Below, piece by piece: positions 2,918 through 43,057 of a stretch of DNA of 44,882 nt. The translations under genes and the position numbers were made by a program. The notes beneath the pieces are model-generated. The model was not told where the DNA came from and did no database searches. It saw nothing but the letters and a program-made list of their open reading frames with translations. Numbering within the stretch: position 1 is the first letter of the stretch; each line of letters opens with the position of its first letter. Location of the stretch: the sequence record PZ445419.1, one strand, 5' to 3'. Source of the stretch: a phage.

Positions 2918-4004
2918 TCAACATTTGGCGGATCGAATGATTCGCCGTCACATCTTCACCCAGCGCCTGAGCAATGAACAGGCGCGGAGGGTGCTGGCTA
3001 TGTGGGAGAAGTTCCGGCCCACTTTACTTGGTAAGCTGACCGAGTTACTTGATGGCAAAAAGTCCATGAGCAACAAGGCACTTACCACACTGTTAACCCA
3101 AATCGACAAGACCGTCAAAACGGAACTGCGCGCCGAGTTTAAAGTGCTGGCGGAGAGCCTTCAGGAGTTCGCCGACACCGAGGCTGATTATCTCGCGGAC
3201 ACACTAACGGCAGCGATCCAGCCCGCGGTCGCCGTACCAGCGGTTGAGGTGGTGGGTGTAGTGACTGGCGCGCAGATTGCAGCGACGGCAATGAAAAACC
3301 CGTTCCAGGGTAATACGATGATGCAATGGCCTGATTCACTTTCCGAGTGGACCAGGACGCAGATCGGCAATCAGGTGCGCGCTGGATTCATCCAGGGCAA
3401 GCCGACGATGGAAATTATTGCGGACGTGAGGCGCGCGCTAGGCGGTCGTAGTGCGCAAGCAATCTCAAGCGTTGTTAAGTCCGCGGTCAACCACTATGCG
3501 GCGACCGCCCGCGAATTAATGGTAAAAGCTAATGACGATATTCTCGAAGGTCGCCAATGGTTGGCTACATTGGACACGCATACTTCTCCCATGTGCCAGC
3601 TACGCGATCGCCTGTTTTATCCGGTTGATGTTACTCCCGACACCAAAGGAAAACGCGGCGGGAAAGTGGTGGCGGGATCACAATATGGCGCTGGTCCGGG
3701 CAAGCTGCATTATTGCTGCCGATCGACGGAGACGTGGAAAGTTAAGGGCATGGAAGATTGGCCCAGTGGTAAGCGTCCGGCACTGAAGGCTGACGCGGGC
3801 AGGTTGCTGAGTGAGCAGGTCGACGCGCAGACTGATTTCTTCTCGTGGGTGCAGCGCCAGCCGCGCCATATCCTGGAGGAGTTATATGGAGTGCAACGCG
3901 CCGACCAGATTATGCGCGGCGTGAAAGTGCCGAAGATGTTTACCGATACGGGCGAACTAATGACTATTGCGCAGCTTAAAAACCGGGGGCTATGGCGTGA
4001 TTAA
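2901..4004 (+). CDS. head morphogenesis protein (SPP1 gp7 / Mu F-like)
   Basis: 367-aa ORF overlapping the portal 3' end; position and sequence character match minor head/morphogenesis proteins. Confidence 0.6.
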   Translation: MAKTINQHLADRMIRRHIFTQRLSNEQARRVLAMWEKFRPTLLGKLTELLDGKKSMSNKALTTLLTQIDKTVKTELRAEFKVLAESLQEFADTEADYLADTLTAAIQPAVAVPAVEVVGVVTGAQIAATAMKNPFQGNTMMQWPDSLSEWTRTQIGNQVRAGFIQGKPTMEIIADVRRALGGRSAQAISSVVKSAVNHYAATARELMVKANDDILEGRQWLATLDTHTSPMCQLRDRLFYPVDVTPDTKGKRGGKVVAGSQYGAGPGKLHYCCRSTETWKVKGMEDWPSGKRPALKADAGRLLSEQVDAQTDFFSWVQRQPRHILEELYGVQRADQIMRGVKVPKMFTDTGELMTIAQLKNRGLWRD

Positions 4005-4305
4005 GTATGCAGCGATTGGGTTGGTAATAGGTCTGGCGGTTGGATTCTGGCAGGGTGACTCCTACCGCACTGGCGTTGAGGCGAGAGCGGCGCAAGAAGC
4101 GCAAGCGAAAGCCCAACGGCAGCAAACTAAGGTTGTCGAGGGGGCCGTGCAGGCAGAACAGGCCCGCGACGTGGAATACCGGACTATCACGAAAGAGGTT
4201 GTAAAATATGTTACGCGTCCTAACCGTCCTGATTGCCGTTTTGATGATGAGCGCGTGCGGATCAAGCAAAGCGCCATCGACGCCGCTAACCGAGTCGGTC
4301 TATAG
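3997..4305 (+). CDS. i-spanin (Rz-like), inner-membrane lysis protein
   Basis: N-terminal TM segment YAAIGLVIGLAVGFW followed by an A/Q/E/R-rich coiled-coil; GTG start at 3997 has a GGGGG RBS (ORF track opens at TTG 3967); contains an embedded +1-frame lipoprotein ORF. Confidence 0.5.
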   Translation: MIKYAAIGLVIGLAVGFWQGDSYRTGVEARAAQEAQAKAQRQQTKVVEGAVQAEQARDVEYRTITKEVVKYVTRPNRPDCRFDDERVRIKQSAIDAANRVGL

Positions 4306-4438
4306 ACCGCCTTGCACCTTTGAGAATGCCTCGGCAGATCCAGACGAAGACTTGCTGGTTGATGTTAAAAATATGGAATGCGGGGCTAAGCTAAGGGCGC
4401 AAGTGCTGGATTTGCAGAAAATAATTCGGGGGCCGTAA
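4208..4438 (+). CDS. o-spanin (Rz1-like), outer-membrane lipoprotein
   Basis: 76-aa ORF starting inside the Rz-like gene in the +1 frame and extending past it; signal peptide with lipobox-like LMMSAC; Pro-rich mature part with Cys residues. Confidence 0.5.
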   Translation: MLRVLTVLIAVLMMSACGSSKAPSTPLTESVYRPPCTFENASADPDEDLLVDVKNMECGAKLRAQVLDLQKIIRGP

Positions 4439-4451
4439 TGGCCCCCCTTTT
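4428..4451. terminator. intrinsic terminator hairpin between convergent genes
   Basis: Perfect 7-bp G/C stem GGGGGCC-gtaat-GGCCCCC followed by CTTTT on the plus strand; U-rich (GAAUUAUUUUC) after the stem on the minus strand; the Rz1-like stop codon lies in the loop. Confidence 0.6.
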
Positions 4452-4452
4452 G

Positions 4453-5217
4453 TTAGCGCGGAATACCGCAAATCTCGTTTAACGTCTTCACGTCCAGCGC
4501 CACCGCCGTGGACTTCGGCTTGTCCGGGTAAGGAATGAACTGTTCCACTTCAGGCCACGCCTTGATCAGCTTCTTATCGGTATTGTGCATATCCAGCACG
4601 CCAGTAACCGTTAGTTTGAACGCGTCATACTTCGCGCGCAATTCGCGGCGGGCCTTGTCGTTACGGTCCAGGCGCTTGCAGAAATCATGATCCGCCGGGT
4701 AGTCCGCGCGACCGCGAGGAAGATATATCGGCAACGCTTTCCCGTCCTCGTCCACTTCGCACACTGACGCGAGCATAACAGCCTCGAACCCCGGAACGAT
4801 ATCGCCGAGATCAGGCGCGAGCTTATTCATATATTTCTCTTCCCAGTATCCGCGATGTATGCGGTGTTGGCGACCGTCGCCGCTCAATGACAAGGTGCGA
4901 ACATTGCCGCCTGCGTTGATTTCAAAGGTGGCGTTGTAAACGCTGCCGATACCTTTCTGGCGGTCGGTGTTATAGCTATACGTCGCCTTGTTGGTGTATA
5001 CGCTGACGCCGTACATCTGCGACTGGTCGTCGAGGATTGCCTTGATATGCTCGCGGAGCGCTGCGAACGTGCGAATGCCTTCCGGCATACAGTCCAGCGT
5101 GATTGCGTACGCCAGATCGCGTGAGTCCATCATGATTTGTTTGGCTTCGGTTGCGATTTCGTGGTCGCGCAGGATGTTAGCCAGAATCTGGTTTTTAATG
5201 TCTTTTGTCAGTCTCAT
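4453..5217 (-). CDS. hypothetical protein; reverse-oriented moron in the head module
   Basis: 254-aa ORF on the opposite strand from all flanking structural genes; ATG at 5217 with GAGGA RBS (track ORF starts 15 codons upstream); own sigma70-like promoter and terminator; no recognisable domain. Confidence 0.6.
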   Translation of the reverse strand: MRLTKDIKNQILANILRDHEIATEAKQIMMDSRDLAYAITLDCMPEGIRTFAALREHIKAILDDQSQMYGVSVYTNKATYSYNTDRQKGIGSVYNATFEINAGGNVRTLSLSGDGRQHRIHRGYWEEKYMNKLAPDLGDIVPGFEAVMLASVCEVDEDGKALPIYLPRGRADYPADHDFCKRLDRNDKARRELRAKYDAFKLTVTGVLDMHNTDKKLIKAWPEVEQFIPYPDKPKSTAVALDVKTLNEICGIPR

Positions 5218-5246
5218 TTTTGTGTCCTCGTTGTTGGTGTGCAACC

Positions 5247-5276
5247 AATATAGCGCAACCAATTCCCGCAGTGCAA
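5247..5276 (-). promoter_or_regulatory. candidate sigma70-type promoter of the moron with two ATTGGTTGC motif copies
   Basis: Minus strand reads TTGCAC-18 nt-TATATT; ATTGGTTGC copies in the spacer and overlapping/just after the -10 (plus-strand GCAACCAAT at 5241-5249 and 5255-5263). Confidence 0.4.
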
Positions 5277-5365
5277 GCGAATTTTGCGATTATTTTTATC
5301 GCTGATAATATTAAGGCGTGAAGTCAAGCGGGTGGCCCGCTTTGCCACAATCCCAGGGGGATAGC

Positions 5366-6070
5366 ATGAAACTTACTAAAGCAGAATATGACGCGTTGCC
5401 GGAAGGCATGAAGGCGCTTTTTGTTGCCGATGGCGACGGGTATAAATCAACGTTCATGACCGCAGAAGAAGTACAGGCGGAAATCAAGGGTCTGAAAGAC
5501 AACAACGCGAAGCTGGTGAGCGAGAAGAAAGCAGAAGCTGAACGCCGCGCCGAAGCTGAGCGCCTTGCGAAAGAGAAAGAGGAAGCCGCCGCGCGCAAAA
5601 ATGGCGACCTCGAAGCGATCGACAAGTCCTGGAAAGATAAGTTTGCGAAACACGAAGCAGACACATCGGGAAAAATCGAAGCCTACCGCAAGCAGATCCA
5701 CGATCTAACCATCGGCAGCGCTGCCAAAGACCTGGCGTCGAAGCTGTTCGGTAAGAATGCGGGCATCATGCAACGCCACGTAATGGACCGCCTGACGCTG
5801 GAAGACGGCGAAGACGGCAGCTTGAAAGTGCGTGTCTTACAGGATGGCAAACCATCCGCGCTGACTATGGAAGAGCTTGAAAAAGAGTTCCGTAATAACG
5901 CCGATTTTGCATCCGTCCTGGCGGGCACGCCAGCAGGCGGCGCGCCTAGCAAACCGACGCAGGTTGTCGAAGATGTGAAGTCTAAAATTACGATGGGCCA
6001 TAGCTTCGGTATCACCGATCTCACCAAACAGGCGGGGGATATCATCGCGAAGATGGGCGACGACGAGTAA
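5366..6070 (+). CDS. scaffolding protein (putative)
   Basis: 234-aa charged, coiled-coil-rich ORF (KAEAERRAEAERLAKEKEEAA) immediately upstream of the major capsid gene; ATG 5366 with AGGGGGA RBS. Confidence 0.6.
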   Translation: MKLTKAEYDALPEGMKALFVADGDGYKSTFMTAEEVQAEIKGLKDNNAKLVSEKKAEAERRAEAERLAKEKEEAAARKNGDLEAIDKSWKDKFAKHEADTSGKIEAYRKQIHDLTIGSAAKDLASKLFGKNAGIMQRHVMDRLTLEDGEDGSLKVRVLQDGKPSALTMEELEKEFRNNADFASVLAGTPAGGAPSKPTQVVEDVKSKITMGHSFGITDLTKQAGDIIAKMGDDE

Positions 6071-24401: not shown

Positions 24402-24431
24402 AATATAATGCAACCAACCTATTGGTTGCAA
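24402..24431 (-). promoter_or_regulatory. candidate sigma70-type promoter overlapping a palindromic ATTGGTTGC operator
   Basis: Minus strand TTGCAA-18 nt-TATATT; spacer is the perfect inverted repeat TGCAACCAA-tagg-TTGGTTGCA (24409-24430); GC hairpin in the leader at 24376-24395. Confidence 0.45.
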
Positions 24432-24889
24432 GTGAATTTTGCAACGTTAATTGCGTAAATTTTCGGGACCAGATCGCTGCACGCCCGACGAATTGCCGCG
24501 ATGTTCTTCGGGCAGTCCTCAATGATGACCAGTTCAGACACGTCCGCGTAGCAGACCATTTTGAACACGGCGCACGCCTTAAACTCAGGCGGTGGGGTGT
24601 CGTCCAACATGTGGCGCATAAACAACCGGCCTGTCGGGAATACTTCCAGTTGCTCGGCGGTAGTCTCCCAACATTCGCGCTGCCGGTTAGTCAGATACGC
24701 TATCTCGAAGCCTTGCTCTTTGTACATGCGCAGCAGCGGCAGCATATCCATGTTCAGGTCTTCGCGGACGTGCGCTTTGTGCCACTTTGCCCAAAAGGTT
24801 GATTTCGTTTTTATGCCCGGCACCAGGTCGGCGCGTGCATCACTCGAACCATTAATAACGCCATCCAAATCGCAAATCAGTAATTTCAT
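24419..24889 (-). CDS. HAD-superfamily phosphatase-like protein
   Basis: 156-aa ORF beginning MKLLICDLDGVING (HAD motif I DxDGx). Confidence 0.55.
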   Translation of the reverse strand: MKLLICDLDGVINGSSDARADLVPGIKTKSTFWAKWHKAHVREDLNMDMLPLLRMYKEQGFEIAYLTNRQRECWETTAEQLEVFPTGRLFMRHMLDDTPPPEFKACAVFKMVCYADVSELVIIEDCPKNIAAIRRACSDLVPKIYAINVAKFTCNQ

Positions 24890-25110
24890 TTTAAGCTCTC
24901 AATAAGGGTTTCTCGGGCGCTTCGCGCAGTAAAGGAGTTGCATACGAAATGGCAACGCTGGGTCATGACAAGCCAACCGGTGAGATCAAGGCCCATGATG
25001 CGTCCGGGGTGAGACGCGCGCACCACATGATTGCGTCGCGGGTCAATGCCGTAGTCTTTTTGCATTTGGTCTACGACCGCTGGGTCGCGGTCAACGATTA
25101 AGATATTCAA
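24886..25110 (-). CDS. hypothetical protein
   Basis: 74-aa ORF, translationally coupled to neighbours on the minus strand. Confidence 0.4.
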   Translation of the reverse strand: MNILIVDRDPAVVDQMQKDYGIDPRRNHVVRASHPGRIMGLDLTGWLVMTQRCHFVCNSFTARSARETLIESLK

Positions 25111-25576
25111 GGAGTTCTCCTTCGCTCATTATTTCAATTTGTGCGCTGCCGATTGGTGGCGCTTCGTCAAATATTATCAATTGCTGGCACTTGTTATTGC
25201 TTGGCCCGACTTCGCCGGTGACGGCGTGAATGAATCTAATCCGCCAGTCCAGAAGAATTATCAGGTTTGCAGTCTTCCTGGCCAGCTTCGCCCACTTCGT
25301 CGACGTATCCTGATTCAGTAGCATGACCGTCCGGCGTCCGTGCGCTGCGCACTCTACCCACGGCAGCGGATCGGAATACGGCGGATTGCACCACTTCCAC
25401 CCTTTCAACTCGGACCAGTCCACATCAAGCGCGCTGTGTTCCGCCGTGAAGTAACGCGGTAGCAGATGATTGGCGTCGCTTGCCGCCATATCGTAACGGA
25501 ATCGGTACTTCCGACGAAGCGGTTTAAATAAAGCTGGCGGCGTGCGCCAGCTATCTTTTTGCTCACTCTTCTGCAT
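25091..25576 (-). CDS. dam: DNA N6-adenine methyltransferase (phage Dam-like)
   Basis: 161-aa ORF with WRTPPALF, DMAASDANHLLPRYFT and the catalytic NPPY motif (WCNPPYSD). Confidence 0.75.
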   Translation of the reverse strand: MQKSEQKDSWRTPPALFKPLRRKYRFRYDMAASDANHLLPRYFTAEHSALDVDWSELKGWKWCNPPYSDPLPWVECAAHGRRTVMLLNQDTSTKWAKLARKTANLIILLDWRIRFIHAVTGEVGPSNNKCQQLIIFDEAPPIGSAQIEIMSEGELLEYLNR

Positions 25577-26021
25577 GATCTGGATCTATCGCGTACAGGG
25601 CAATTTTCTTGTCGCTGGACAGAACGCGCCGGACTCGGGCCATATCCGCCGGACCCAGCGGTCGGCTATCGGAATAGTAGCTGCCGTTAGCACGCCACGC
25701 TATCAGCACCAGATCTTTCCGGTCGATCTTAGACTGGCGGCCCTTCGGGCGCACGTATTCCTCGGCCCGTTTGCAATGCTCGCGCAGACCTTCGGCAGTG
25801 ATGCGGTTTAGTGCAACGCTGGTTGTGTATCCGGTGCGCTGCATAATCCCCATCAATTCGAAAAGCAGTTCGAAGCGCTCCTCTAGCTCCTGGCGCACTT
25901 TCTTCTCACCTTCATATAGCGCCTGTTTGGTGTCCGCCAGCGCGTTCGCACGTTCGGCCTGTTCGCGGGCTTCGAGGCATTGCGCGGCCCAGTAATTTTT
26001 CTCTTCTTGTAAAATTTTCAT
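25563..26021 (-). CDS. hypothetical protein
   Basis: 152-aa ORF with coiled-coil-like N-terminus. Confidence 0.5.
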   Translation of the reverse strand: MKILQEEKNYWAAQCLEAREQAERANALADTKQALYEGEKKVRQELEERFELLFELMGIMQRTGYTTSVALNRITAEGLREHCKRAEEYVRPKGRQSKIDRKDLVLIAWRANGSYYSDSRPLGPADMARVRRVLSSDKKIALYAIDPDHAEE

Positions 26022-26309: not shown

Positions 26310-26345
26310 TCAATATAATGCAACCAATATGATTATGCAACCAAT

Positions 26346-29277: not shown

Positions 29278-29556
29278 CTATGCGACCAATTCAGCAACCA
29301 ATAAATCGCAGTCGGCTATGTTGTCGATAACGCGAACGTCCGCACCGCGGCGGGCCATTCGATCATGTTCACGTACTTGGTGCGGCTTCGGTTTTCCTCC
29401 GGGGCGCTTCACTTCGACGAACACTATTTTGCCGTTGATGATAATAATCAGGTCGGGAGCACCTGCGCGCCCCTCCCATGCCAGTTTTCTGCAGAATCCG
29501 CCGACCTCTTTAACCCGTTTCATAAGGTGACGCTGCACCTTGCCTTCTGGTGTCAT
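29278..29556 (-). CDS. VRR-NUC domain nuclease
   Basis: 92-aa ORF with PD-(D/E)XK-type core APDLIIIINGKIVFVEVKRPGGKP. Confidence 0.65.
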   Translation of the reverse strand: MTPEGKVQRHLMKRVKEVGGFCRKLAWEGRAGAPDLIIIINGKIVFVEVKRPGGKPKPHQVREHDRMARRGADVRVIDNIADCDLLVAELVA

Positions 29557-38758: not shown

Positions 38759-38867
38759 ATTGGTTGCCTATATGGGAATCCCCATATCGCTAAACGATTA
38801 ATTTGTGCGCGAATTGGTTGCCATTTTGAGTGTTTTTATCTGGTCGCATTGGTTGCCGTGTAGCGTG
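38759..38867 (+). repeat. three direct ATTGGTTGCC motif copies in an AT-rich spacer
   Basis: Exact copies at 38759-38768, 38813-38822 and 38858-38867; the first is followed by the palindrome TATATGGG-aat-CCCCATAT. Confidence 0.7.
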
Positions 38868-38907
38868 ATTATTATGAATAGTTATGCAATAAAACTGCAT
38901 AAAGTAA

Positions 38908-39069
38908 GCGGGACAGAAAGCGGGACAGACATGGGGCGGGACAAAGCGGGACAGCACCCCCGTCCCGCCCCGGATGGCGCGGCCTGGCGTGGGGCGGGAC
39001 AAGCGGGACAAACCCCAGTCTTTCAGACTAGACGGGGGTCAATGGCCCCCCTCGTCTGAGACTGAATAA
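38908..39069. repeat. iteron-like GCGGGACA array ending in the conserved 57-bp palindrome (module copy 2)
   Basis: Six direct GCGGGACA/CGGGACA copies plus an inverted GTCCCG copy; 38930-39069 is homologous to the 3' part of 10840-11156. Confidence 0.8.
39013..39069. repeat. 57-bp palindromic element, copy 2 (identical to 11100-11156)
   Basis: Same 57-nt sequence as copy 1, base for base. Confidence 0.8.
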
Positions 39070-39224
39070 AATCCGGGGATTGCAAAATACACGGCAGCAT
39101 GAGGCGAAGTGCGGTCGCGGATGAACTTGGCAACCAATGCGGGTTGTATTATGCTGAGTGAAAAATGCGGTTTGCAGTCACAGCAGATAGCGATCAACTT
39201 TTTCATGCGCATGATTAATATTGG

Positions 39225-39253
39225 TTGCATTCGTTCCAGCACCCTGCTAGATT
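39225..39253 (+). promoter_or_regulatory. candidate promoter for the rightward small-gene operon with ATTGGTTGCA motifs
   Basis: TTGCAT-17 nt-TAGATT; motif copies at 39220-39229 and 39251-39260; leader ATTGGTTGCACACCAACAAGAGGAC closely matches the moron leader at 5217-5250. Confidence 0.45.
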
Positions 39254-39283
39254 GGTTGCACACCAACAAGAGGACTGCACAAA

Positions 39284-39763
39284 ATGAAATTTCCAGTAAT
39301 CATCAAAGACGGTAAATCAACTATCACCTTCACCGGCAACGACCACGGCACTTACGAGAGCGGCGCGGCTTGCATGTCCACCCTGGAAGATATGATGATT
39401 CGTGTTAATTCCGGTAAAGCCTCGATTGTTGACGACAACACTAAGAAGGACCGAACAATGAGAGCACTAATCTGGAATTACTCACTGGCCCTGGCAAAGC
39501 TGAACGAAGCGAAGGCGCTGAACGGCAACGTAGACCGTGCGCGCCAGTTTGCGACACTGGCACACCAGTCAATCATGTGTGCGCTAGACGATATGGACGC
39601 CAGCATGGATGGCCTGGGTCCGCTGCGTAAGGCAATCCATGAATACGCGCTGGCATTCTCCCGTGAGCGCCTGGCTTATCGCTTCGGTATTGGCGAGAAG
39701 GCAGTGACAAACGTCGCCAGGATTAAAGCCCAGCGTGAGCTATTCGCCCAGCTTGCGAAATAA
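39284..39763 (+). CDS. hypothetical protein
   Basis: 159-aa ORF, first gene after the long regulatory region. Confidence 0.55.
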   Translation: MKFPVIIKDGKSTITFTGNDHGTYESGAACMSTLEDMMIRVNSGKASIVDDNTKKDRTMRALIWNYSLALAKLNEAKALNGNVDRARQFATLAHQSIMCALDDMDASMDGLGPLRKAIHEYALAFSRERLAYRFGIGEKAVTNVARIKAQRELFAQLAK

Positions 39764-39772
39764 GGGGCCAAA

Positions 39773-40042
39773 ATGCGCCGGAGACGAGCAAAACAGCTTT
39801 CGTGGCATATTCCCCTGCATTGCATACGAATATGGGCTAAGAATGCGAATGCGGGGGATTCTGTGTACTGGTGCTATCGCGACGACGTAAAGCCACTGAC
39901 GCAGACTCGCTACTTACACCAGTTCGCAGCACAACACGATTTCAGGGTGCGGACTTCCTTGCAACCAATGGGAATACGTATTACATTACGCCAGAAGCCC
40001 GCCATTGAGCGGGTGGGCAAACACTGGAGACTGAGCAAATGA
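39773..40042 (+). CDS. hypothetical protein
   Basis: 89-aa ORF with AAGGGG RBS, ending in the conserved junction GGAGACTGAGCAAATGA. Confidence 0.45.
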   Translation: MRRRRAKQLSWHIPLHCIRIWAKNANAGDSVYWCYRDDVKPLTQTRYLHQFAAQHDFRVRTSLQPMGIRITLRQKPAIERVGKHWRLSK

Positions 40043-40191
40043 TCAAAGTTCAGAGCAAGGCAACCGGTCTGATTTATCTTGTGGTGTGGGAGGGGAACGG
40101 AAGCGTAACGCTCATGCACCCAAAAACCAAATCACGCCACACTATCAGCCAATTTACCCTGAACCAGAACTATCGGAGACTGAGCAAATGA
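40039..40191 (+). CDS. small hypothetical protein
   Basis: 50-aa ORF absent from the ORF track; start and stop both lie in copies of the conserved junction cassette. Confidence 0.45.
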   Translation: MIKVQSKATGLIYLVVWEGNGSVTLMHPKTKSRHTISQFTLNQNYRRLSK

Positions 40192-40340
40192 CACCAATGC
40201 AAAGAGCACTAATGGCGGGATTCTCGCAGAAGTTTATTTCGGTAGACGCCTGCATAGCTGATTATGAGATGGACGGCATCGCTACGGTATGCGATGGCGA
40301 CTATAAGACTGTTGACGAGATTGAGGAGACTGAGCAATGA
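40188..40340 (+). CDS. small acidic hypothetical protein
   Basis: 50-aa ORF, same length as the preceding gene, bounded by junction cassette copies. Confidence 0.45.
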   Translation: MTPMQRALMAGFSQKFISVDACIADYEMDGIATVCDGDYKTVDEIEETEQ

Positions 40341-41983: not shown

Positions 41984-42461
41984 CAACGGTCTAAGATTTA
42001 CGGCAGCATGGGAGCAATTCAGCCCAGTGCCGTATTTCGCGACTAAGAAAGAGCAGGCCCGCGGCCTGTACACCTGGGGCTATGGGCATACTGGCACTAA
42101 CCCGCCTCGAAGCATTACCCGTGCAGAAGCGCTGGAACTGCTCAAGCGAGATGTGGCGTATGCCGAGGACTGGGTGAACAAATACGCTCATAAGAGCATT
42201 AACCAGGCGCAATTCGACGCGCTGGTGGATCTGGTAATCAATGCCGGTCCGGGTCCGATCGTACCGGATGACGTCGCGAATGATTTCGATGATGCGGTGC
42301 GACTGGGAGACTGGGCGAAGGTACGAGCTACTCTGCCGCAGTTCCGCAAGCAAGGTGGCGAAGTGCTTAAGGGTCTGGTGCGCCGTGCAATCGGCAGGCA
42401 AGCGCTATTCGATGGTAAGCAGTGGGACGTTGCCGAGCGAATCGGGCGTAACGCAGCATAA
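41970..42461 (+). CDS. endolysin (phage lysozyme, GH24/T4-lysozyme-like)
   Basis: 163-aa ORF; WEQF...YTWGYGHTG matches the catalytic Glu and GYGH core region of T4-type lysozymes. Confidence 0.75.
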   Translation: MRFSDNGLRFTAAWEQFSPVPYFATKKEQARGLYTWGYGHTGTNPPRSITRAEALELLKRDVAYAEDWVNKYAHKSINQAQFDALVDLVINAGPGPIVPDDVANDFDDAVRLGDWAKVRATLPQFRKQGGEVLKGLVRRAIGRQALFDGKQWDVAERIGRNAA

Positions 42462-42477
42462 TACGAGGTAACACAGT

Positions 42478-42645
42478 ATGTTAAAAAGCATTCTTGATCA
42501 TAACGCTGACGCGCTCGCCGCGCTGGCTAAAACCGAAGACCCTGGCGCTCGCGCCATTATCGCGGACACAATCAGCCACGCTGGCATCTTCGACGCTAAG
42601 TTGCCGAGTCCGCCACCGCCGGAAGAACCAGGCCCAGCGGCCTAA
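42478..42645 (+). CDS. small hypothetical protein
   Basis: 55-aa ORF after the endolysin, followed by a terminator. Confidence 0.35.
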   Translation: MLKSILDHNADALAALAKTEDPGARAIIADTISHAGIFDAKLPSPPPPEEPGPAA

Positions 42646-42650
42646 ACACG

Positions 42651-42676
42651 AAGCCCGGTTAATTCCGGGCTTTTTA
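42651..42676 (+). terminator. intrinsic terminator after the lysis cassette
   Basis: AAGCCCGG-ttaatt-CCGGGCTT followed by TTTTT. Confidence 0.65.
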
Positions 42677-42680
42677 TTGC

Positions 42681-42710
42681 TTGACTTGCAACCAACATAG
42701 ACGCCATACT
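42681..42710 (+). promoter_or_regulatory. candidate sigma70-type promoter with ATTGGTTGC-family motifs
   Basis: TTGACT-18 nt-CATACT directly after the terminator; TGCAACCAA in the spacer (42687-42695) and GCGACCAAT just after the -10 (42711-42719). Confidence 0.45.
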
Positions 42711-42740
42711 GCGACCAATCAACAAGAGGAGTATTACACT

Positions 42741-42830
42741 ATGGCACGTAATGATATTTGGGTATTGGCAATCTGGTCCGCCGCGGCATTTATTGGAATG
42801 GTAATTTGTGAGGTGACTTATGGCATTTAA
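42741..42830 (+). CDS. small membrane peptide (hypothetical)
   Basis: 29-aa ORF MARNDIWVLAIWSAAAFIGMVICEVTYGI with AAGAGGAG RBS. Confidence 0.3.
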   Translation: MARNDIWVLAIWSAAAFIGMVICEVTYGI

Positions 42831-42993
42831 ACCGCAACGCGATTCCCGCCCTATGGCGGAACGACCGCGGGCCTCCCAAATGGAGGCGTCATTCTTCCGG
42901 GGTCTTTCGTTCCTGACAAAGAAAGAGCAGGGGAAAGTCATGGGTGAGTTCCGCCGCGTATTGGCGGAATTCAAGCAGCAAGACGCAGAATAG
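42820..42993 (+). CDS. small hypothetical protein
   Basis: 57-aa ORF overlapping the previous stop. Confidence 0.3.
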   Translation: MAFKPQRDSRPMAERPRASQMEASFFRGLSFLTKKEQGKVMGEFRRVLAEFKQQDAE

Positions 42994-43057
42994 TGCCTCG
43001 CCGCCATACTGACCGTGGTATATTGTCCACGGTCCACTAATCAGGAATTAATTAAAT

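Follow-up and report, generated by a model that had tools for sequence, protein, structure and literature searches.

The antisense nmad5 gene of Escherichia phage Oekolampad: a stand-alone Nmad5-family transcription unit inside the head-gene block

The best described relatives of the gene considered here belong to two Dhillonvirus phages, SM_A8 and SMS22, whose nmad5 genes (CDS7 and CDS6, respectively) were studied by Yamashita et al. (2025, Commun Biol 8:290; PMC11846954) together with Tmn, a transmembrane KAP/YobI-type P-loop NTPase that acts in defence. Mutants escaping Tmn carried K216E in the SM_A8 protein or the equivalent K296E in the SMS22 protein; reversion of this substitution alone made the phage sensitive, and its introduction alone made the phage Tmn-resistant (PMC11846954). 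Deletion of nmad5 from SMS22 gave a viable phage that did not escape Tmn, attempts to clone the gene failed, apparently because it is toxic, and the protein was termed "a DNA modification enzyme" (PMC11846954). Here, we describe the ortholog in Escherichia phage Oekolampad (Bas18 of the BASEL collection; Dhillonvirus), whose complete genome of 44,882 bp, rotated by 551 bases, is the stretch of DNA analyzed (the window; window coordinate = NC_073089.1 record coordinate − 551). The segment 3900–5700 matched Oekolampad at 100% in megablast. The gene is gp07 of Oekolampad (record 5004–5768 in NC_073089.1), where it is labelled "hypothetical protein."

Tmn is also activated, according to a preprint, through direct binding of the early protein RIIB of phage T2, and one residue decides activation (PMC13001434). 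The Nmad5 family owes its name to its occurrence in thymidine-hypermodification clusters and adjoins aGPT-Pplase1 in M6-like phages (PMC9476957). The M6 pathway was reconstituted in vitro with gp51–55, of which gp51 and gp54 were enough for the first steps (PMC8989533). nmad5 is already known: Pfam lists the family, and experiments on the Dhillonvirus gene have been published. The present analysis adds the placement of the escape lysine within the signature of the family, a conserved promoter and operator architecture that would link nmad5 to a non-structural regulon, the finding of no solved structural relative, and the poor fit of the "nucleotide modification" label to most members.

Oekolampad nmad5 is a stand-alone, single-domain gene of the Nmad5 family, and it forms its own leftward transcription unit, antisense inside the head-gene block. 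The protein matched Pfam PF18757 (Nmad5, "nucleotide modification associated domain 5") over residues 1–253 and profile positions 1–206 (E = 6.9e-60; 203.1 bits, gathering cutoff 27), and it matched PHROG 1965 (unknown function) at 1e-62. A first-pass annotation of this DNA had correctly located a lone reverse gene of 254 amino acids between the spanin pair and the scaffold gene, with its open reading frame (ORF), position, and strand, but its statement that the protein had no assignable motif was wrong in view of this full-length match. The name Nmad5 is already used in UniRef/RefSeq for the Oekolampad protein or its 95%-identical ortholog in SECphi18. nmad5 is the sole minus-strand gene of the first 20 kb of the window, with the i- and o-spanin genes (gp05/06) on one side and gp08, followed by the major capsid gene, on the other; many relatives list gp08 as the head scaffolding protein. 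The ratio of nonsynonymous to synonymous substitution rates (dN/dS) against the SM_A8 ortholog was 0.13 overall, 0.05 in residues 166–254, and 0.20 in the middle, and the minus-strand frame is therefore the frame under purifying selection.

An exhaustive HMMER search over 1.84 billion representatives yielded 101 relatives, mostly of ~200 amino acids, and an alignment of 88 sequences, all of which (88/88) match PF18757, defined the signature of the family. L217, W221, and N247 are invariant in this alignment, and P222, E223, and L246 are nearly so. The consensus consists of an N-terminal RLTxxI[RK]xxI and a C-terminal TxKKLxxxWPE...LNxxxGLP, in which the next-to-last residue is L or I, and the Oekolampad protein has the complete set (R2, L3, T4, I7, K8, T213, K215, K216, L217, W221, P222, E223, L246, N247, G251, I252, and P253). 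The SM_A8 protein is also 254 amino acids long, is 87% identical, and is encoded in the same slot by the scaffold gene behind the same promoter architecture. Its segment TDKKLIKAWPE, including K216, is identical in Oekolampad, and the Oekolampad K216 is therefore the residue corresponding to the escape site. The lysine that was mutated in the Tmn-escape phages thus sits inside the most conserved motif of the family; position 216 of the alignment is K, R, or Q in 91% of the sequences. Outside the signature, the Dhillonvirus proteins have lineage-specific insertions in the middle, at roughly residues 70–95 and 118–165. Within the genus, residues 50–90 and 111–125 are variable, and 181–254 are almost invariant. 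SM_A8 differs from Oekolampad in an extra ORF of 104 amino acids before nmad5, and its Tmn genetics, like that of SMS22, is known, whereas Oekolampad is described here from its sequence.

The coordinates of the nmad5 unit and of related elements are listed in Table 1. The first-pass annotation had proposed a dedicated promoter with two copies of the motif ATTGGTTGC, a bidirectional terminator, and a leader resembling that of a rightward operon, and all three hold up. A generic promoter scan did not call the nmad5 promoter, which matches 8 of the 12 consensus positions. However, its −35 and −10 elements and ATTGGTTGC are kept upstream of nmad5 in SM_A8, in LM40P1, whose protein is 63% identical, and in a more distant metagenomic contig, L002 (45%), with the common architecture TTGCAy-17/18-TATAkT and a copy of ATTGGTTGC in the spacer. 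In the contig with the 45%-identical homolog, the intergenic DNA is better kept than the protein. This phylogenetic conservation is a stronger argument for the promoter than the scanner score. The terminator hairpin received a terminator-like call on both strands (−17.5 and −18.5 kcal/mol) and is kept in SM_A8 and LM40P1. The leader of nmad5, GCTAnATTGGTTGCACACCAACAA followed by GAGGA and ATG, recurs at 39247–39286 with its Shine-Dalgarno sequence. An Rfam scan of 4200–5500 gave no match.

Table 1. Features of the nmad5 locus and of the sister leader, in window coordinates
Feature	Position	Strand	Details
nmad5 coding sequence	4453–5217	−	254 amino acids + stop; ATG at 5217, TAA 4453–4455; Pfam Nmad5, PHROG 1965, dN/dS 0.13
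Family-signature codons	4549–4581	−	T213-D-K-K216-L217-I-K-A-W221-P222-E223; K216 codon 4570–4572
Leftward promoter (predicted)	5247–5276	−	−35 TTGCAC (5271–5276), 18-nt spacer, −10 TATATT (5247–5252); read from sequence, sigma-70-like
Two ATTGGTTGC copies	5241–5249 and 5255–5263	−	One overlaps/follows the −10, the other lies in the spacer
Shine-Dalgarno GAGGA	5225–5229	−	7 nt 5' of ATG; kept in LM40P1 and in the leader at 39270
Bidirectional intrinsic terminator hairpin	4428–4446	both	GGGGGCC-gtaat-GGCCCCC; o-spanin and nmad5 converge on it with their stop codons
Candidate divergent promoter, scaffold/capsid genes	5284–5311	+	TTGCGA (5284–5289), 16 nt, TAATAT (5306–5311); read from sequence
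Sister promoter + leader	39220–39286	+	TTGCAT-17-TAGATT, ATTGGTTGC at 39220 and 39251, then GGTTGCACACCAACAA-GAGGA-ATG, 159-aa ORF (39284–39763)

Back-to-back with the nmad5 promoter lies the rightward promoter, a candidate for driving the scaffold and capsid genes; its segment 5284–5311 is nearly invariant across four aligned phages. A conserved hairpin, GCGGGTGGCCCGC, was also observed at 5328–5340 in the leader of the scaffold gene (window 5284–5345, plus strand). Taken together, the rightward promoter, this hairpin, and the bidirectional terminator suggest that the head genes beyond nmad5 are transcribed apart from the terminase/portal/spanin block.

The distribution of ATTGGTTGC offers a clue to when nmad5 is expressed. 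The motif occurs in 15 exact copies genome-wide, and 30 sites have at most one mismatch (13.3 ± 3.3 in shuffles). Intergenic DNA, 6.6% of the genome, holds 12 of the 15 exact copies (binomial p ~3e-12). Apart from the two at nmad5, all exact copies are in the non-structural part of the genome, at window ~21.3–40.0 kb (21348, 24410–24429, 26320–26345, 29282–29302, 35944, 38759–38856, 39130, 39220–39259, and 39961), where several overlap the −35, the spacer, or the −10 of the promoters of non-structural operons. At 26337 and 39220, ATTGGTTGC supplies the −35 TTGCAT, followed after 17 nt by TATATT or TAGATT, and at 29294 it supplies TTGCTG, followed after 17 nt by TATAGT; the copies at 24410/24421 form an inverted pair. 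Because the motif is otherwise found only at promoters of non-structural genes, nmad5 is likely expressed early or in the middle of infection, not late, and likely belongs to a regulon with the replication and small-ORF genes instead of the late head operon. The set of sites could be the operators of a phage regulator or an origin-like cluster of iterons. One possibility, though a doubtful one, is that ATTGGTTGC is the operator of a Dhillonvirus regulator that co-ordinates nmad5 with the replication genes. Six of the copies are packed into 38759–39259, with the helicase gene on one side and the small-ORF operon on the other.

The position of nmad5, flanked by minor capsid/spanin genes and by scaffold/capsid genes, is the only observation that favors a role of its product in head morphogenesis or head structure, and we regard such a role as scarcely credible. 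nmad5 runs opposite to its neighbors and has a promoter, of the non-structural type, and a terminator to itself; homologs in unrelated phages map to early or replication regions; and no structural family was assigned to the protein in searches of Pfam, PHROG, and BFVD. In SMS22, its deletion is viable (PMC11846954). From this viability and the toxicity on cloning, we count Nmad5 as non-structural and dispensable. A structural role is effectively refuted by the strand, the promoter type, the viable deletion, and the contexts of the homologs.

Neither in fold nor in sequence was similarity to any enzyme found. An AlphaFold2 model built on the 88-sequence alignment (mean predicted local distance difference test score 90.5, predicted template modelling score 0.83) consists of three N-terminal helices, a six-stranded β region (79–129), a long helix (178–209), and short helices with the signature. 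Matches to this model in BFVD were other Nmad5 phage proteins only, and a profile search of the PDB sequences gave no match below E = 0.68. NCBIfam returned only noise (E ≥ 0.07), and a Pfam scan of each member of the alignment showed only scattered noise beyond PF18757. No domain fusion was found among 73 profile hits, which have ~100–300 amino acids (mostly 180–254); PF18757 is the single domain in all of them. Invariant polar residues are few (N247, E223, R2, and T213), and no catalytic signature was apparent in the sequence among the conserved polar residues (R2, T4, K/R8, T213, K216, E223, and N247). As a single-domain protein with no match to a solved structure and few invariant polar residues, Nmad5 is counted here as not enzyme-like. 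No published assay of any Nmad5 protein was found. The idea that Nmad5 is a DNA mimic was rejected, since the protein is neutral (isoelectric point 7.0; 9.2 for the C-terminal third) and the family median is 7.7.

The published label implies that Nmad5 is an enzyme or specificity subunit of nucleotide or DNA modification, producing or guiding a subtle DNA modification in Dhillonvirus, for example with the Dam or Dcm methyltransferases of the phage, and that the outcome of Tmn depends on that modification. Yamashita et al. interpret their results in this way (PMC11846954), and Oekolampad does encode Dam-like and Dcm-like methyltransferases. The neighborhood holds up in M6/LK3-like phages and in two metagenomic contigs, where an HMUDK kinase, Nmad5, and a thymidylate-synthase homolog follow one another in strict order. 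The Nmad5 proteins of these Mesyanzhinovviridae belong to the same Pfam family and share both terminal signatures with the Oekolampad protein. They differ in their length of ~186 amino acids, without the middle insert of the Dhillonviruses, and in being flanked, in a 5-hmdU cluster, by HMUDK and dU hydroxymethylase; Oekolampad has no such flanking modification genes, and identity is only ~35–40%, over the last 80 residues. No hydroxymethylase, HMUDK kinase, or aGPT-Pplase is annotated among the 65 genes of the Oekolampad record, and no match to a cofactor-binding or catalytic fold was obtained. Nmad5 was not among the five M6 proteins, gp51–55, used in the reconstitution, which ran without it (PMC8989533). 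Dhillonviruses were reported to be restriction (RM)-sensitive, as opposed to 7-deazaguanine phages (PMC8594841), and deletion of nmad5 leaves sensitivity to Tmn unchanged (PMC11846954). Most of the family members covered here have no modification genes nearby, as described below. Neighborhood and fold thus do not support the label of DNA modification enzyme for nmad5, and we consider a modification function in Oekolampad improbable.

The contexts of the wider family point elsewhere. When IMG/VR was scanned for a pattern taken from 14 aligned sequences, 258 loci were confirmed, of which 80 were kept, and all 80 are lambdoid prophages. In 69 of these 80 loci, Nmad5 follows the N antiterminator (PF11438, E = 5e-25) in pL, with N at −1 in 49 and at −2 in 20; a second family, without a Pfam match, which we take to be Nun-like as in HK022, is at −1 in 10. 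A CI-like repressor and CII are encoded further upstream, and the downstream neighbors are variable (DUF2528 and small ORFs). The prophage protein of 207 amino acids matches PF18757 at E = 3e-71. Stx phages have the same arrangement (Stx1 phage SH2026Stx1, 3695–4318). A single cluster of prophage Nmad5 at 90% identity has 2,436 members, and one sequence occurs on 623 contigs of E. coli or Salmonella; no published function was found for Nmad5 of the lambdoid or Stx prophages. As in Oekolampad, the gene is a stand-alone member of the same family in a phage without hypermodified DNA, and it is an early gene, as Oekolampad nmad5 probably is; the differences lie in the pL/N-antiterminated expression as opposed to a dedicated promoter, in the temperate lifestyle, and in an identity to the Oekolampad protein of ~33% over the C-terminal 100 residues.

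Elsewhere, the Nmad5 gene of Vibrio phage Athena1 adjoins the gene of replication protein O, and other members follow genes of DNA polymerase III alpha, lie in a module with PolA, an ssDNA-binding protein, and DUF2800, or lie among small early genes. In contig L002, nmad5 forms a leftward cassette with the gene of a RusA-like resolvase. No base-modification genes were found near Nmad5 in the lambdoid prophages and several other phages. Judged by gene neighborhood, the theme shared by these contexts is early expression beside genes of DNA replication and metabolism and not base modification.

These contexts also bear on whether Nmad5 is a counter-defence or host-takeover protein that inhibits an immune or essential factor of the host, possibly directed against other variants of Tmn or other KAP NTPases, which K216E retargets to the Tmn allele tested. 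The first slot after N, in which the lambdoid prophages carry Nmad5, would suit such a protein; in lambda, the region after N carries accessory genes such as ral and sieB. The early-type promoter, the dispensability, the toxicity on cloning, and the evasion of immunity by a single surface change but not by deletion are likewise consistent with this function. The middle domain diverges fast, and nmad5 diverges faster than the capsid gene in Dhillonvirus (nucleotide identity mostly 80–90% versus 90–99%). On the other hand, wild-type Nmad5 is not known to inhibit any defence system, and a search of PADLOC, which covers defence and not anti-defence proteins, gave no match. The association with replication or modification modules is untypical of known anti-defence genes. 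The mutated lysine belongs to the motif that is most conserved across very different hosts, and this argues for a conserved ligand and against a fast-changing immune target. We therefore judge a counter-defence function unlikely. The first-pass annotation had expected a function in defence, anti-defence, or host takeover, and this was borne out in part: the ortholog is tied to Tmn, dispensable, and toxic when cloned (PMC11846954). For an anti-defence role of wild-type Nmad5, no evidence was found, and the published deletion left Tmn sensitivity as it was.

A further explanation of the escape mutants is that Nmad5 is itself the pattern sensed by Tmn and that K216E removes the epitope, in the manner of T2 RIIB. 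Escape mutants of two phages arose independently at the equivalent lysine (PMC11846954), and RIIB and Nmad5 are both non-structural phage proteins (RIIB early, Nmad5 probably so) in each of which a single residue sets the outcome of Tmn, for RIIB through direct binding (PMC13001434). The two cases differ in that loss-of-function mutants of RIIB escape Tmn, whereas the nmad5 deletion does not. Since the deletion phage is still sensitive (PMC11846954), Nmad5 is not the sole trigger, and a second trigger would defeat a simple loss-of-recognition mutation. A comparison with hhalign gave a probability of 0.3% for a relationship between Nmad5 and RIIB, and their kinship was rejected. Sensing of Nmad5 by Tmn is thus a very improbable explanation.

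Here, we propose a reading of Nmad5 based on its promoter, contexts, and fold, to which we give about an even chance as a whole: it is a non-structural, early or middle, non-catalytic binding factor of DNA metabolism, K216E is a neomorphic change, and Tmn has a trigger other than wild-type Nmad5. Nmad5 would be neither a component of the head nor, probably, a base-modifying enzyme in Oekolampad. Most probably, it acts as a dispensable, non-catalytic binding or adaptor factor tied to the replication or metabolism of phage DNA, although this is the least secure element of the proposal. Its working surface would consist of the nearly invariant N-terminal R-L-T-x-x-I-[RK] and C-terminal T-x-K-K-L-x-x-x-W-P-E ... 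L-N-x-x-x-G-L-P, and the lineage-specific middle insert (~residues 50–165) evolves fast. The charge reversal of K216E would be a neomorphic change of the binding surface that ends Tmn immunity where deletion does not. The K216E protein may mask the real trigger of Tmn or block Tmn itself; wild-type Nmad5 would not be the trigger.

Several points weigh against this proposal. The binding factor is argued from absent catalytic hallmarks, no activity, partner, or timing of Nmad5 has been published, and the conserved set of R, T, K, E, and N could still form a small active site. The early timing is deduced from one line of evidence, the shared cis motif. The Tmn genetics comes from the sister phages SM_A8 and SMS22 and not from Oekolampad, and the neomorph view is a suggestion of Yamashita et al., a proposal in their own study (PMC11846954).

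The proposed binding factor has a wider form, which we hold as doubtful. The Nmad5 proteins would be misnamed early proteins that dock on a conserved component of replication or of DNA metabolism at the membrane through the invariant WPE/LN motif and thereby set whether Tmn-like NTPases fire. Such docking would span the Dhillonviruses, thousands of lambdoid and Stx prophages, Vibrio phages, and M6-like phages, and Nmad5(K216E) would then be a ready-made, portable inhibitor of Tmn. For phage therapy, K216E in a near-universal Dhillonvirus gene would be a transferable means of evading Tmn, and the Oekolampad motif is identical. The "nucleotide modification" label has been carried into experimental papers as if established; the contexts, the orphan fold, and the lysine in the signature redirect the question to a binding function. 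The part worth pursuing is the function of this very widespread early phage protein.

Other links between these phages and defence concern different genes. The triggers identified in SECphi18 and SECphi4 are Ksap1 (KpAvs2), the portal (RAZR), and SSB/DNA polymerase (Retron-Eco8, Borvo), and the anti-Tmn gene of SMS22 is ORF35, located elsewhere in the genome. The "NMAD" domain of the DefensePredictor systems is irrelevant here, because it is Nmad2 and not Nmad5. In Oekolampad, gp31 (74 amino acids; window ~24886–25110, minus strand; record 25437–25661), which from its position we presume to be the ortholog of Ksap1, lies between the phosphatase and the Dam-like methyltransferase genes. Ksap1 is the SECphi18 protein that activates Klebsiella Avs2 (bioRxiv 10.1101/2024.01.31.578182).

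The first-pass annotation had called the gene a moron. Like the lambdoid morons of Hendrix and Juhala, nmad5 has its own promoter and terminator, as read from the sequence and its conservation, sits between late-operon genes, and is dispensable. However, it is near-core in Dhillonvirus. The capsid gene of the genus was found in 159 phage records, and nmad5 in ~150 (tblastn, ≥60% identity) or 146 (megablast) of these. The 45%-identical homolog occupies the same antisense slot by the scaffold/capsid genes in the more distant phage represented by contig L002. Given ~150 of 159 records and this syntenic homolog, nmad5 is not a sporadic moron: the autonomous unit implied by the term stands, and the sporadic insertion does not. 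Because Oekolampad is virulent, nmad5 also has no role in lysogenic conversion.

The truly sporadic, moron-like element of the locus is the 104-amino acid ORF of SM_A8 (PHROG 24635, unknown function; L008:1146–1460), which is inserted between the conserved promoter/leader and nmad5, is followed by a small hairpin, and is absent from Oekolampad. An alignment gap of ~360 bp points to the same insertion in at least eight further records (welsh, Haito_Bas83, RuthEpting_Bas85, Shigella phage 1b, vb_EcoS_bov 11C2, 25_1D, 22_1, and 16_1). In contig L002, the gene after nmad5 in the leftward cassette (L002:5251–5763, 170 amino acids) encodes the RusA-like Holliday-junction resolvase (PHROG 3007, E = 3e-53), and Oekolampad has its terminator at the corresponding position.

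The i-/o-spanin pair (window 3997–4438, plus strand) lies in the head module, ~37 kb from the holin/endolysin cassette (record 42002–43012). The o-spanin has the lipobox LMMSAC, and its stop codon is within the loop of the terminator hairpin. The 159-amino acid ORF behind the sister leader (plus strand) has a good Shine-Dalgarno sequence, and GenBank annotates only its last 101 codons (gp53, record 40009–40314). The annotated start of gp53 is probably too far downstream, judging from this leader; PHROG 9839 covers only residues 59–159 of the longer ORF.

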